From a phage: 64,000 bases of DNA. The position numbers and the translations under genes were made by a program. Below the pieces are notes generated by a model. The model did no database searches, was not told where the DNA came from, and was given only the letters and a program-made list of their open reading frames with translations. Location: the sequence record PZ053912.1; one strand, written 5' to 3'. Positions 36,726-41,296 of this stretch are shown here, one piece after another (the stretch's first letter is position 1; each line of letters begins with the position of its first letter).

Positions 36726-36849
36726 TTTAAATTCTCAATTCGAGATAATATTTAGTAGCCACGTTCGTCTGAATTTCACCTTCTTTCGACAAGTCTCTCA
36801 GTTGTAGGCTACCGCTTAGAAGAGTGTTCTCTTCATATAGTTATTTATA

Positions 36850-37182
36850 TCACTTATAAAGACACGGAATAGCTTTATAGTGGCATGTTACGAATTTCTG
36901 TTTAATTTCTTTAGGTTGTTTAAGTCCCAAAGCCACAAATGGATGTGGAACATTTCGAATTTGTCCAACTGGTAGTGGAGTCAAATCACCGACTTCAACA
37001 AAACCTTCAGGAACATCAGGACCTACAGAATGAACTACACATAGTTCAGGAACTTCACCTTGAACACGTTTACCAATCACAAGTCCTGATTCTGTAACTT
37101 CTTCATCACCTGCTTGAGCGGGTTCAGAAACCAGAATGACATATTCACCAACAGCACGAATTGGGAGTTGTACTTCAGACAT
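36850..37182 (-). CDS. 31: head assembly co-chaperonin gp31 (GroES-like)
   Basis: 110 aa; near-identical to remembered T4 gp31 ([25 protein letters not shown]...). Confidence 0.95.
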
Positions 37183-37239
37183 CTTATTTCCTTGTTGTTT
37201 GACGATAGATTAATAATACCATACTATTCGTAAAGCATA

Positions 37240-37536
37240 TTACATAAGAAGCAAACGTTCCGCCGGAGTACCATCAACCGAAATTACTTTATCAAGGCGG
37301 AAAGAACGCCACTGACCTAACTTGGTATCGAATGCTCGAACTGATTCACGAGGTTCATAACGAACTTCTGTTGCCGGATTGTTATTTTCGTATTTGACTT
37401 CAAGTTCATCGCGCGAAGCAAACATAGTGCGTACCTCACCGTTAGCCTTTTCAAATACAACACAATGAACGCCTACAGACAGAATAGTTTTAATACGTTC
37501 ACGAAGAACCATAGTTTCTTGTTCAGTTAAAATCAT
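37240..37536 (-). CDS. hypothetical protein (98 aa; 31.1-like position)
   Basis: ORF between cd and 31. Confidence 0.55.
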   Translation of the reverse strand: MILTEQETMVLRERIKTILSVGVHCVVFEKANGEVRTMFASRDELEVKYENNNPATEVRYEPRESVRAFDTKLGQWRSFRLDKVISVDGTPAERLLLM

Positions 37537-37538
37537 AA

Positions 37539-38120
37539 TTATTCACCACAAAAGTTTCGGATTTGTTCCCAATTCAGAGAACGAAGATTATTACGAGAGT
37601 ACTGAATTACTTCAATACCGGCTTGTTTTAGAATGTCTGCCCAATTTTCAGGAGATCTGTCATATAATTCTGCGTATACAACCTTTTTAATACCTGACTG
37701 CGTAATAGCTTTAGTGCAATCAGGACATGGAGAAAGTGTCGTATACAACGTAGCACCTTCAATAGAATTACCTTTACGAGCTGCAAACAAAATGGCATTC
37801 AATTCAGCATGGATTTCGTTATTAGCAGACCATGCACTATGAGCGGCCCGATGTTCTTTAGCCAAAACAAAATTATCCACCCGTCCAAATGCTGTAGTGC
37901 CTTCTTTATGTCCAGCAACGATGACCGGGCTTGGTTTATTCTTCAACCAACCATTTTCGGATGCATGTTCACAACAGTTAACGCCACCTGCTGGTGAGCC
38001 ATTATATCCAGTAGAGATAATGCGTCCATCTTTTTCAATGACTGCGCCAACTTTCCATGAACAACATTTTGATTCTTGAGAAATCAGATATGCAATCTGA
38101 AGGTATGTGCTAGCTTTCAT
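37539..38120 (-). CDS. cd: dCMP deaminase
   Basis: 193 aa; zinc-binding HAE and PCxxC motifs (NEIHAELNAI, SPCPDCTKAI); size as T4 cd. Confidence 0.95.
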   Translation of the reverse strand: MKASTYLQIAYLISQESKCCSWKVGAVIEKDGRIISTGYNGSPAGGVNCCEHASENGWLKNKPSPVIVAGHKEGTTAFGRVDNFVLAKEHRAAHSAWSANNEIHAELNAILFAARKGNSIEGATLYTTLSPCPDCTKAITQSGIKKVVYAELYDRSPENWADILKQAGIEVIQYSRNNLRSLNWEQIRNFCGE

Positions 38121-39112
38121 TATTGAACCTTATTAATATAAGTTAACAGCTCTTTAGTTTGTTCCCAACTGATGCACGCATCGGTAACGGAAACACCATA
38201 GGACATATTATCGGAAATTTTTTGATTTCCTTCATGTAGGAATGATTCTATCATAATTCCTTTGACCAAATCATTAGCTGCTAAATTTTTACCAATACCA
38301 ATTTGATTGCTATAATGTCCATCAGCGTTTGCATGGCTACAGTCAACCATTACATAATGATTCAGACCTACTGCCCTTGCTTTGTTAGAAGCTTCTTGAA
38401 TATCAGAAGAATGATAGTTCGGGCCGTTAGTCCCGCCACGCAATACGATATGCGTATTCTGATTACCTTCAGCTTCAACAATGCCTACAGTACCATCGAC
38501 GTCCATACCCATATACCGATGAGGCCAGGCGGCACTATACATCGCGTCTGTAGCTACTTTAATAGAACCATTGGTTGCGTTCTTGAAGCCTACGCACATC
38601 GGTAGACCTGAAGCAATTTCACGATGCGTCTGACTTTCAGTCGTACGGGCGCCAATAGCAACCCATGAGAAAATACCAGAAAGATACTTAATCGTGAATG
38701 GGTCTAATACTTCAGTTGCTAATGGAAGTCCCATACGTAGAAGTTTACGACACAATGTTCGTGCAACTATAAGACCGTGGTTCATATCAAAACTTCCGTC
38801 AAGATATGGATCATTTACAAGACCTTTCCAACCTACGGTAGTTCGAGGCTTTTCAAAATAAACGCGCATCACTAACAGAACATTAGGAAGACGAGTTTGA
38901 AGTTCAGCCAGACGTTTGCCGTATTCAACAGCAGCAATAGGGTCATGAATTGAACAAGGACCTACAACAATAAGTTTGCGTGGGTCTTCACCGTTCATAA
39001 TCGAATTAACTTGTTCGCGATGAGAAGCCACTTGTGATGCGTAAGCTTCCGACAAAGGAATAATCTCAGCCAGTTCTTTTGGAGAAATAAGTTTTCTGAT
39101 GACAGGTAACAT
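38120..39112 (-). CDS. 3-deoxy-D-arabino-heptulosonate-7-phosphate (DAHP) synthase, class I AroG-like
   Basis: 330 aa aligns along its length with remembered E. coli AroG: LIVVGPCSIHDP, RVYFEKPRTTVGWKGL, AIGARTTESQ.HRE.ASGL, FSHAN, ESFLHEGNQ, TDACI.WE; metal ligands Cys/His/Glu/Asp conserved; AAGGA RBS; stop overlaps cd start. Confidence 0.9.
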   Translation of the reverse strand: MLPVIRKLISPKELAEIIPLSEAYASQVASHREQVNSIMNGEDPRKLIVVGPCSIHDPIAAVEYGKRLAELQTRLPNVLLVMRVYFEKPRTTVGWKGLVNDPYLDGSFDMNHGLIVARTLCRKLLRMGLPLATEVLDPFTIKYLSGIFSWVAIGARTTESQTHREIASGLPMCVGFKNATNGSIKVATDAMYSAAWPHRYMGMDVDGTVGIVEAEGNQNTHIVLRGGTNGPNYHSSDIQEASNKARAVGLNHYVMVDCSHANADGHYSNQIGIGKNLAANDLVKGIMIESFLHEGNQKISDNMSYGVSVTDACISWEQTKELLTYINKVQ

Positions 39113-39233
39113 AACAATCCTTAGGAGATATAAACAGATTCTGATTCAACAATACCTTTAACCGGATTAGACAGGCTAAGTTGGTAGTGCTCAGATTTAT
39201 GACCATTCACGATAGTAATGAGATAGCTCCTCA

Positions 39234-39470
39234 TTATAGTGTTCCATATACTCGAGTTGCTTCAACAAGACCATCACTGCCTAATTTAAGATTAGTAATT
39301 TGGTCACCATCTTTAGGATTAACGATTATGAGAAAAGAACGTGGAGATTCTTGAATAACTCGTAATGTTGCATCTTGGAAACGTTCAGACACTTTATTGA
39401 TGAGTGCTTGAGCAAATTCTTTTACTTTAATCTGAAATTCGTGTACTGTAATTGGGTTTTCACTTAGCAT
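39234..39470 (-). CDS. hypothetical protein (78 aa)
   Basis: ORF preceded by early-promoter-like motif 39499-39528. Confidence 0.55.
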   Translation of the reverse strand: MLSENPITVHEFQIKVKEFAQALINKVSERFQDATLRVIQESPRSFLIIVNPKDGDQITNLKLGSDGLVEATRVYGTL

Positions 39471-39498
39471 TTCTATTTCCTCATTTGTTGGTAGAGTT

Positions 39499-39528
39499 AT
39501 AGTATCACAACTCCACCATGTTGTAAAC
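39499..39528 (-). promoter_or_regulatory. early-type promoter (GTTTAC-N18-TGaTACTAT)
   Basis: Motif on minus strand about 30 nt upstream of the 78-aa ORF. Confidence 0.45.
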
Positions 39529-39530
39529 CA

Positions 39531-39806
39531 TTAAATTGCTTTGCATTCAATTTTTTGTGTACCGAAATTGATATCACATTGGATAACTAAATCGCCGTCA
39601 AGATCAAATACCACTATGACGTGTGCAGACCCAGGGAGAAGAGTAATAGCAATAGAATCTACTTGGTCTGGGAGCAAAGCATTGAGTACATGAGTTAGTT
39701 GAGCATGAACTCTGAGTTCGGCTGCATTATCAAGCACTTCAAACATATTATTAGCAATAATCTGACTGAAGACTACCTTTACAATTTCAGAATAAGTTGG
39801 GAACAT
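39531..39806 (-). CDS. hypothetical protein (91 aa)
   Basis: ORF in pseT-cd hypervariable interval. Confidence 0.5.
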   Translation of the reverse strand: MFPTYSEIVKVVFSQIIANNMFEVLDNAAELRVHAQLTHVLNALLPDQVDSIAITLLPGSAHVIVVFDLDGDLVIQCDINFGTQKIECKAI

Positions 39807-39813
39807 AATTACC

Positions 39814-40038
39814 TCAGTGTACAGTATTTACTTTAACTCGAACAACAAATCGCTCGGTCGGTTCACCTACAGGAACAAACTCTACATGATATTCACCTTT
39901 GTAACGAGTATTCAGATCATTACGAATTCCTGCGAGTTTGTTGATTAATGTAGGACTCATATTAAGTCCCACTAGTTTACGAAGCATTTTGTATGCTTCA
40001 TCTTCGATTTCATGATGTTTATCGTACATAGTTTTCAT
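39814..40038 (-). CDS. hypothetical protein (74 aa)
   Basis: ORF in pseT-cd interval. Confidence 0.5.
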   Translation of the reverse strand: MKTMYDKHHEIEDEAYKMLRKLVGLNMSPTLINKLAGIRNDLNTRYKGEYHVEFVPVGEPTERFVVRVKVNTVH

Positions 40039-40209
40039 TTAACCATTCAATTGCCTGGTCGACGTTATCAAATATACCGCCGTCCAACCATTCTTCATGT
40101 TCATAGTCCAGCACATCAATACCGAACCGTCCATTTACTAAAGGCCATACTACAAACAAATATTCTTTATGCTGTTCGATGGCCTCAATCACTTCATATA
40201 ATCGTTTCA

Positions 40210-40210
<1 letters not shown>
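40019..40210 (-). CDS. hypothetical protein (63 aa)
   Basis: ORF immediately downstream of pseT. Confidence 0.45.

Positions 40211-41296
<1,086 letters not shown>

Follow-up and report, generated by a model that had tools for sequence, protein, structure and literature searches.

The gene described here lies in a window of 64,000 nt (the whole stretch that was analysed) from a T4-like coliphage of the genus Mosigvirus, 99% identical to PNJ-9, JS09 and HX01. The coding strand of the gene is the minus strand, not specified in the first-pass annotation, on which an open reading frame of 330 codons plus stop (38120..39112, with the start codon ATG at 39110-39112) was identified as a DAHP synthase of type I-alpha and of AroF-like lineage, using the ORF list, profile and PDB matches and a structural model. 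The upstream neighbour, also on the minus strand, is a homologue of cd.2 (39234..39470; 78 aa, with a profile match to PHROG 1504), and the next gene downstream, again on the minus strand, is cd (37539..38120), recognized as the dCMP deaminase gene from its ORF and from the annotation of phages that are 98-99% identical. Reading of the minus-strand sequence revealed a Shine-Dalgarno motif, AAGGA (39118..39122), 5 nt upstream of the DAHP synthase ATG, and a TAATG stop/start overlap (38118..38122) at the opposite end of the gene, where one base is common to the DAHP synthase TAA (38120-38122) and the cd ATG (38118-38120). The Shine-Dalgarno motif of cd, AAGG (38128-38131), falls within the final DAHP synthase codons, and from the TAATG overlap the DAHP synthase gene is predicted to be translationally coupled to cd. 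The first-pass annotation had placed the gene in the variable interval upstream of cd, with its stop codon overlapping the cd start, as is indeed the case; it had also called the gene "fused" into the cd operon, which does not hold, as this is a separate ORF between cd.2 and cd that shares a single base with the latter. Between cd.2 and the DAHP synthase gene there is a 121-bp spacer (39113..39233, minus strand), overlapped by a possible ORF of 37 codons (39121-39234), which begins with an ATG overlapping the stop of cd.2 and is inconsistently annotated among relatives.

A scan for expression signals detected an early-promoter-like site, GGTTTACA-N17-(TG)TACTAT (39499..39527, minus strand), in the cd.3/cd.2 spacer. 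This site aligns to the T4 spacer that, according to the T4 record, holds the early promoter Pe133295, and it is the likely source of a transcript covering cd.2, the DAHP synthase gene and cd. The arrangement comprises a promoter-like site upstream, a DAHP synthase gene on the same strand as cd and the TAATG overlap, and no terminator-like site was found by scanning the minus strand from the promoter-like site to cd. A MotA-box match within the gene (38609-38617) is not regarded as a middle promoter, since a TAnnnT -10 element is missing downstream of it and since it falls in the codons of the conserved residues IAS. The late promoter TATAAATA was not found upstream of the DAHP synthase gene, its nearest copy (36842-36849) being located downstream of gene 31. 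Neither tRNAs nor Rfam families were found anywhere in the 64,000-nt window.

In T4 the order of genes at this locus is cd.2-cd.1-cd, without a DAHP synthase, as the first-pass annotation had stated. The idea that the DAHP synthase gene replaces cd.1 was rejected, since EcS1 and CHI14 carry both genes in the order cd.2-DAHPS-cd.1-cd. The spacer and the DAHP synthase gene form a cassette flanked by an imperfect direct repeat on the minus strand, with a left copy ATAATGAGGAGCTA (39224..39237) and a right copy ATAATGAAAGCTA (38111..38123) at the start of cd; RB69 and mar005P1 contain a single copy of the repeat and lack the cassette. About 140 other Mosigvirus records carry the DAHP synthase gene, which is precisely absent from RB69 and mar005P1 and is therefore not universal in the genus. 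The survey of related phages that the first-pass annotation had proposed yielded 213 matching phage records of seven or more genera, each with at least 80% coverage and all (213/213) with an intact ORF. The same locus is occupied in Kanagawa-, Kagamiyama-, Marfa-, Winkler- and Bragavirus; the position is conserved in seven genera and the gene is an accessory one. All homologues from T4-like phages (28/28) form one clade, monophyletic in NJ trees. A contig named "Acinetobacter phage MD-2021a" was rejected as a phage homologue, being bacterial DNA with a cob operon beside aroF, and the unverified and unannotated "Bacteriophage sp." clones of human-faecal origin were set aside as evidence.

Its absence from RB69 and mar005P1, in which the locus is otherwise unchanged, and its location in a hyperplastic region might suggest that the gene is a neutral passenger bringing no benefit to the phage. 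We regard this as extremely improbable in view of the ORFs kept intact throughout the matching records, the invariance of all catalytic residues, and the low dN/dS within Mosigvirus (0-0.2, calculated from just a few substitutions in each pair). Moreover, nucleotide conservation of the DAHP synthase gene within Mosigvirus (99.0-99.6%) exceeds that of cd (94-96%) and pseT (96-98%). Between genera its identity tracks that of cd, pseT and gp31. A recent host origin was rejected, because the best cellular matches reach only 50-55% identity and come from scattered taxa, with no close cellular donor found, and because the composition is fully phage-like (GC 41% and GC3 29%, as against 52% and 50% in E. 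coli aroF).

The gene is already known: it is annotated in about 200 phage records and catalogued as PHROG 5045, and annotated proteins of NBG1, AV117, JS09, HX01, ST0 and others share 98-100% identity with the window protein. The novelty implied by the first-pass annotation therefore disappears, and the gene call as such adds nothing new. Two phage-genome papers list a phage DAHP synthase as a candidate auxiliary metabolic gene, with a role that is at most hypothesised, and mentions of the phage gene in the literature searched are only in passing (10.1101/2020.01.19.911818, PMC8022965, PMC11845039). No functional study (enzymology, genetics or expression) of any phage DAHP synthase was found in the full-text literature searched, and neither the pocket signature described below nor a test of function is reported in the annotated phage records or papers compared.

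The identity of the protein is well established by comparison with curated families. Over its full length it passes the cut-offs of Pfam DAHP_synth_1 (PF00793; E=5.2e-75, 252 bits against a cut-off of 25.5), TIGR00034 aroFGH (428.5 bits; cut-off 173.2) and NCBIfam NF009395 (455.9 bits; cut-off 343), while residues 8-327 match the E. coli AroF structure 6AGM (E=4e-105), a similarity to DAHP synthases far beyond chance. Residues 1-330 align with profile positions 8-337 of 341 of PHROG 5045 (E=2.5e-182), an auxiliary metabolic gene family found in phage genomes; "auxiliary metabolic gene", the term already used in the first-pass annotation, is the best description of the phage gene. The label "AroG-type" proved imprecise: the NCBIfam AroG equivalog NF006723 is matched with only 364.5 bits, below its cut-off of 568, and sequence identity, together with an AroF-like Gly residue, places the protein nearer to AroF than to AroG.

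All motifs quoted in the first-pass annotation were found in the translation, i.e. GPCSIHD (51-57), KPRTTVGWKG (88-97), SHAN (259-262), ESFLHEGNQ (289-297) and TDACI (310-314). According to alignments, the metal ligands are Cys53 (codon 38954..38956; AroG C61), His260 (38333-38335; AroG H268), Glu289 (38246-38248; AroG E302) and Asp311 (38180-38182; AroG D326), and the KPRT motif of PEP/E4P binding (residues 88-91) is encoded at 38840..38851, all on the minus strand. The PEP/E4P residues of AroG (R92, K97, P98, R99, T100, R165, K186 and R234) are likewise all kept, and the 12 metal, PEP and E4P residues (12/12) show no variation among the 28 phage and 95 bacterial homologues, which bears out the claim of conserved metal and substrate ligands and shows, at the level of sequence, an intact active site. 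The structure prediction agrees with this assignment. The AF2 model (pLDDT 92.3) superimposes on solved type I-alpha DAH7PS (NmeDAH7PS and AroG) with a TM score of 0.96 and an rmsd of 1.3-1.4 A, and displays a (beta/alpha)8 barrel with an internal beta-hairpin (beta6a/6b; E198-203, E209-214) and an N-terminal extension that is present but 8-9 residues shorter. Sequence and predicted fold together confirm that the window protein is a full-length type I-alpha DAHP synthase (EC 2.5.1.54). As KDO8P synthases also belong to PF00793, one might consider a shift to another reaction, with a different aldose phosphate as substrate (KDO8P-type chemistry), or to a non-catalytic role. Such a shift is very improbable for a protein that has kept the KPRT motif and every substrate ligand of DAHP synthases, scores above the aroFGH equivalog cut-off and superimposes so closely on DAH7PS.

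The regulatory part of the protein presents a different picture. The allosteric Phe site of type I-alpha enzymes is composed of the N-terminal extension and the beta-hairpin (PMC4735112). Measured to the conserved Pro19 column, the N-terminus of the phage protein (39083..39112, minus strand) has 10 residues before this Pro, as against 18 in AroG and 19 in AroF; the shortening reported in the first-pass annotation is therefore real, although the difference from AroG is 8 residues (9 from AroF) and not "about 7". The same annotation had supposed that a shorter N-terminus could alter feedback inhibition, an idea strengthened by the clade-wide substitutions predicted to line the inhibitor pocket. 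In the segment D137-P-F-T-I141-K142-Y-L-S-G146 (38675..38704, minus strand), Ile, Lys and Gly replace AroG P150, Q151 and D155; Pro171 (38600..38602, minus strand; alignments) corresponds to AroG Ser180, and Tyr200-Met-Gly202 (38507..38515, minus strand; alignments) covers AroG Phe209 and Ser211. In AroG numbering, the substitutions fixed in the phage clade are P150I, Q151K, D155G, S180P and F209Y, giving the signature P-I-K-G-P-Y-G at positions 147/150/151/155/180/209/211, compared with P-P-Q-D-S-F-G in AroF. The replacement residues are fixed in 27-28 of the 28 phage sequences, in spite of an overall identity across genera of only 58-77%. The canonical residues prevail in the 95 nearest bacterial proteins (P150 in 89/95, Q151 in 95/95, D155 in 92/95, S180 in 94/95 and F209 in 94/95), and most of approximately 70 further homologues from viral contigs (39-53% identity, mostly giant-virus MAGs) keep all five, with each one kept by a large majority; across about 170 cellular and giant-virus homologues these residues are thus near-invariant.

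Studies of AroG indicate what such replacements might mean. Q151 and S180 contact the main chain of the inhibitor, D155 makes a salt bridge that stabilises the pocket, and feedback-resistant mutants include P150L (fully resistant), S180F and D146N (PMC9529685). The phage enzyme could nevertheless be an ordinary Tyr-sensitive, AroF-like isozyme that replaces host DAHP synthases no longer made after shut-off and retains normal feedback. Its best solved relative is the Tyr-sensitive AroF, Gly202 and Pro138 match the Gly at AroF 212 and the Pro at AroF 148, the pocket residues D146, L179 and V221 are retained, and the model contains the beta6a/6b hairpin; Gly202, as in AroF, falls at the position of the NmeDAH7PS S213G variant. 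We consider this explanation unlikely, as the phage protein departs from regulated enzymes at five pocket positions that hardly vary among them, one being the site of the fully resistant P150L mutation and two being the direct inhibitor contacts Q151 and S180, and as its N-terminal extension lacks the first 8-9 residues. An intact AroF inhibitor site was not found, since Lys142, Pro171, Ile141 and Gly146 stand in place of Gln152, Ser181, Pro151 and Asp156.

It is also conceivable, if distinctly unlikely, that the pocket has been re-targeted and not lost, the set of Ile, Lys, Gly, Pro and Tyr binding another effector (such as a nucleotide, chorismate, prephenate or some metabolite specific to the phage) and tying entry into the shikimate pathway to the infection programme. 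The fixation of the substitutions among such divergent genera, the cationic group brought by the Gln-to-Lys change, and the neighbouring cd, whose T4 counterpart is annotated as encoding an allosteric enzyme, are in line with this proposal. Against it stands the high conservation of the same segment in cellular enzymes, which has structural causes, and conservation by itself is therefore no sign of ligand binding. The near-invariant replacement residues are as compatible with a constrained pocket, possibly still functional, as with a dead one, and Lys142 could still bind the carboxylate of a ligand. There is an even chance, in our estimation, that the DAHP synthases of T4-like phages represent a natural, clade-wide deregulated or re-targeted type I-alpha form, either blind to Tyr, Phe and Trp or answering to an infection-specific ligand.

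The route to aromatic amino acids, folate, quinones and siderophores begins with DAHP synthase, an entry step that controls flux and is subject to feedback inhibition. This enzyme governs the flow of carbon into the shikimate pathway (PMC9529685). We think it probable, judging from sequence, that the gene between cd.2 and cd encodes an early-expressed, feedback-insensitive DAHP synthase of a distinct T4-like-phage clade, which reopens the supply of chorismate in infection. Transcription would most likely start at the conserved early promoter upstream of cd.2, within the early string of nucleotide-metabolism genes; the adjacency to cd, frd and td may merely reflect a permissive insertion site. 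In the infected cell the phage enzyme would condense PEP and E4P and so raise the entry flux into the shikimate pathway during the shut-off of host genes. From its shortened N-terminal extension and the five altered positions of the inhibitor pocket, we infer that it would not be inhibited by Tyr, Phe or Trp. The supply of chorismate, for aromatic amino acids and possibly for folate and quinone precursors, would in this way be uncoupled from host end-product control, making the phage gene a one-gene analogue of the "aroG-fbr" trick of metabolic engineering. If this is true, a single early phage gene overrides the main control point of the host for chorismate supply, and a natural feedback-resistant type I-alpha DAHP synthase is available ready-made for metabolic engineering; if the pocket has been rebuilt as read here, the phage enzyme illustrates cleanly how a virus can override the metabolic feedback of its host by means of a single protein. 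The presence/absence polymorphism within Mosigvirus, combined with simple assays of the enzyme, makes the hypothesis cheap to test.

Among known enzymes, the Tyr-sensitive AroF of E. coli (6AGM/6AGL) has the same type I-alpha fold as the phage protein, to which it is 51% identical over residues 8-330, and both have every ligand of the metal, PEP and E4P as well as the Pro and Gly residues mentioned above. The phage protein differs from AroF in the absence of 9 N-terminal residues, in the replacements P151I, Q152K, D156G, S181P and F210Y (AroF numbering), in two short internal deletions and in the phage-like GC content of its gene. The Phe-sensitive AroG (1KFL/1QR7) has the same fold and catalytic residues, but only 47% identity, and Gly occupies the position of its Ser211 in the phage protein. 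With respect to the feedback-resistant AroG mutants P150L, S180F and D146N, the phage protein is naturally substituted at two such positions (PMC9529685). The annotated phage homologues grouped in PHROG 5045 represent the same gene at the same locus, and nothing material differs. A purely functional analogy may also be drawn with the PhzC-type (type IIB) DAH7PS of phenazine clusters, an extra DAH7PS copy tied to a specialised programme. Insensitivity to Trp, Tyr and Phe has been demonstrated for this enzyme, and chorismate supply thereby escapes amino-acid feedback (PMC6435475). The PhzC-type enzymes are, however, of type II and not I-alpha, bacterial and not viral, and they have lost their allosteric sites by a different structural route.

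The 330-aa ORF on the minus strand of the window (38120..39112), in whose translation every motif quoted in the first-pass annotation was found, encodes a conserved, intact DAHP synthase. The protein matches the Pfam family DAHP_synth_1 (E=5.2e-75), NCBIfam NF009395 (455.9 bits, cut-off 343) and the aroFGH equivalog TIGR00034 (428.5 bits, cut-off 173), and misses the AroG- and AroH-specific NCBIfam cut-offs (364 vs 568 and 387 vs 463, respectively). Its closest solved relative is the Tyr-sensitive AroF of E. coli (E=4e-105, 51% identity, vs 47% for AroG), so that the protein is AroF-like and not "AroG-type", as had been proposed. The identification is upheld by an AlphaFold2 model obtained with 49 homologues as input (pLDDT 92.3, pTM 0.91), which matches solved type I-alpha DAH7PS structures with a TM of 0.96 and an rmsd of 1.3-1.4 A. 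When 28 homologues from T4-like phages (the phage clade) were aligned with the 95 nearest homologues from bacteria, each of the twelve residues that bind metal, PEP or E4P (AroG C61, R92, K97, P98, R99, T100, R165, K186, R234, H268, E302 and D326) proved invariant in the phage clade, in line with the conservation originally claimed; the metal ligands of the window protein are C53, H260, E289 and D311. The first-pass observation is confirmed and its interpretation essentially supported, with corrections concerning enzyme type, fusion and N-terminus.

The gene as such is not new; it was known and annotated before. The window represents a Mosigvirus: Escherichia phages PNJ-9, F2, JS09, HX01 and ST0, along with over 130 others, are 98-99% identical to it in nucleotide sequence. 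With tblastn, the protein was found in 213 phage records. The protein is matched over its full length by PHROG 5045 (E=2.5e-182), which bears the same name and is assigned to the category 'moron, auxiliary metabolic gene and host takeover'. The Mosigvirus DAHP synthase has been placed among suggested auxiliary metabolic genes (AMGs) of unknown function (Olsen et al., 10.1101/2020.01.19.911818), the domain is recorded in the phiC120 genome paper (PMC8022965), and its Kanagawavirus counterpart has been treated as an amino-acid AMG in a Klebsiella-phage paper (PMC11845039); no enzymatic, genetic or expression study of a phage DAHP synthase was found in the literature searched. In one record of the phage collection, CAKLQH020000056.1 ('Acinetobacter phage MD-2021a'), aroF adjoins cobS, cobT, cobU and further chromosomal genes; the DNA is evidently bacterial, and the record should not be counted as a source of a phage DAHP synthase.

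Type I-alpha DAH7PS bind an aromatic amino acid as inhibitor at the interface of the tight dimer, where the N-terminal extension together with an internal beta-hairpin forms the site (PMC4735112). In AroG, the contacts to the main chain of the inhibitor come from Q151 and S180, a salt bridge made by D155 stabilizes the pocket, and the substitutions P150L, S180F and D146N confer feedback resistance (PMC9529685). The phage clade has the pocket signature P-I-K-G-P-Y-G, as opposed to P-P-Q-D-S-F-G in AroF. Position P150 is Ile in 27/28 phage sequences (Pro in 89/95 bacterial ones), Q151 is Lys in 27/28 (Gln in 95/95), D155 is Gly in 27/28 (Asp in 92/95), S180 is Pro in 28/28 (Ser in 94/95) and F209 is Tyr in 28/28 (Phe in 94/95), while S211 is Gly in all 28, as in AroF and in all 95 bacterial homologues. 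The N-terminus is indeed shorter, as the first-pass annotation had stated, by a measured 8-9 residues and not "about 7": the conserved Pro19 column is preceded by 10 residues in the window protein, 18 in AroG, 19 in AroF and 17 in AroH, by 8-12 in 28/28 members of the phage clade, and by at least 16 in 95/95 bacterial homologues. The residues that replace the canonical ones are in turn fixed throughout the phage clade, as might be expected of a pocket re-targeted to another ligand, a reading that we consider improbable. Since several of the changes match or resemble single AroG mutations that abolish feedback, the sequences suggest that canonical inhibition by Tyr, Phe and Trp has most likely been lost.

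NJ trees recover the 28 phage sequences as a monophyletic group. A scan of IMG/VR contigs yielded about 70 further homologues (39-53% identity), chiefly from giant-virus MAGs; most have all five canonical residues (P150, Q151, D155, S180 and F209), each of which is kept by a large majority. This indicates that the pocket remodelling is a specific trait of the T4-like-phage clade, not one general among viruses.

Dozens of the putatively viral GVMAG contigs (L037-L099) encode type I-alpha enzymes of 39-48% identity, in which canonical pocket residues are mostly retained. Two other viral contigs, L033 (3971-5020; IMGVR_UViG_3300028829_003504, 262 kb) and L034, encode a homologue (48% identity) that is sister to the phage clade in the NJ tree, with a 16-residue N-terminus and a partial pocket, P-P-N-H-P-Y-G, sharing S180P and F209Y with the phages. 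Its neighbours are genes for a NUDIX protein, a eukaryotic-type topoisomerase IB and thymidylate kinase, and the source may therefore be a giant virus. The non-strabovirus Aeromonas phage HJ05 (3399-4562, 79 kb) carries a distant homologue (38% identity) devoid of canonical pocket residues (P150A, Q151H, D155P, S180P, F209V), which could represent independent remodelling; its long N-terminus, counted from the annotated start, may be a mis-call.

The start codon of the gene (ATG, 39110-39112, minus strand) lies 5 bases after an AAGGA Shine-Dalgarno sequence. The stop codon and the ATG of cd have one base in common (TAATG, 38118-38122, minus strand), an overlap that had been correctly noted; DAHP synthase is a separate gene, not "fused" into the operon. 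In the early gene string it is followed by cd (dCMP deaminase, 37539-38120), 31.1, gene 31 and rIII; on the upstream side come cd.2, cd.3 and cd.4 homologues, with pseT beyond them; frd and td lie about 10 kb upstream in the same orientation. The order is cd.2-DAHPS-cd vs cd.2-cd.1-cd in T4, which, as previously remarked, has no DAHP synthase at this position. The cd.2-DAHP synthase spacer contains a possible 37-codon ORF (39121-39234, minus strand), whose ATG overlaps the cd.2 stop and whose own stop lies inside the Shine-Dalgarno sequence. Among relatives, a 1-nt indel is found close to its start, and the annotation of the spacer is inconsistent (41-aa ORFs, 50-aa ORFs or none); other genera, whose spacer measures 9-43 bp, lack the ORF.

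A promoter-like site, GGTTTACA-N17-TACTAT with an upstream TG, occupies the cd.3/cd.2 spacer (39499-39527, minus strand) and aligns with the T4 spacer holding early promoter Pe133295 (placed according to the T4 record). Between this site and cd, the minus strand yielded no terminator-like hairpin, and no late-promoter TATAAATA was found upstream of DAHP synthase; from these signals, we infer that the gene is probably co-transcribed early with cd.2 and cd. Across the whole window, T4-type regulatory motifs are enriched: there are 33 copies of the MotA-box pattern WWTGCTTYA, where 10 are expected, and 18 of the late-promoter core TATAAATA, where 7 are expected, with 0/100 shuffles reaching either count; no tRNA genes or Rfam families were found in the 64 kb.

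DAHP synthase also lies between pseT and cd in five genera besides Mosigvirus: Kanagawavirus (Entb_45, PEi20), Kagamiyamavirus (EcS1), Marfavirus, Winklervirus (CHI14) and Bragavirus (PM2). In EcS1 and CHI14 a homologue of T4 Cd.1 (39% identity, E=3e-13) separates it from cd, giving the fuller order cd.2-DAHPS-cd.1-cd. Protein identity between genera (76, 76, 68, 66, 67 and 58%) ranks as for cd, pseT and gp31, the GC (41%) and GC3 (29%) values are phage-like (52% and 50% in E. coli aroF), and the closest cellular homologues are merely 50-55% identical and taxonomically scattered. Taken together, these features speak for a long stay of the gene in this phage lineage and against a recent capture from a host.

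Within Mosigvirus the gene is accessory. RB69 and the mar005P1 record LR027390.1 precisely lack it, the cd.2 stop there overlapping the cd start; a second record named Mosigvirus mar005p1 (OZ035759.1) covers the entire interval. The 1.1-kb cassette, i.e. the 121-bp spacer (39113..39233, minus strand) plus the gene, is flanked by an imperfect direct repeat (left copy ATAATGAGGAGCTA, 39224-39237; right copy ATAATGAAAGCTA, 38111-38123), which duplicates the first cd codons and is single-copy in phages lacking the gene. In carriers, the dN/dS of DAHP synthase is 0-0.2, a figure based on few substitutions. Compared with four other Mosigviruses, nucleotide identity is 99.0-99.6% for DAHP synthase, 94-96% for cd and 96-98% for pseT. 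Divergence over 36850-41109 is mosaic in the same comparison, and the identity of the cd.3 homologue (39531-39806) falls to 70-71% in LF82-9 and in ESh27, suggesting that recombination has replaced the allele.

We propose that the phage enzyme would be active in infected cells and would add entry flux to the shikimate pathway that escapes end-product inhibition. As DAHP synthase is the flux-controlling step of this pathway (PMC9529685), a single deregulated enzyme might plausibly increase the supply of chorismate. Whether aromatic amino acids or cofactors derived from chorismate, such as folate, would bring the benefit is a matter of speculation, and the proximity of the gene to folate and nucleotide genes is only suggestive. 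The clade-specific pocket signature provides a concrete and cheaply testable hypothesis. A precedent is offered by PhzC of phenazine clusters, a dedicated feedback-insensitive DAH7PS serving a specialised programme (PMC6435475).
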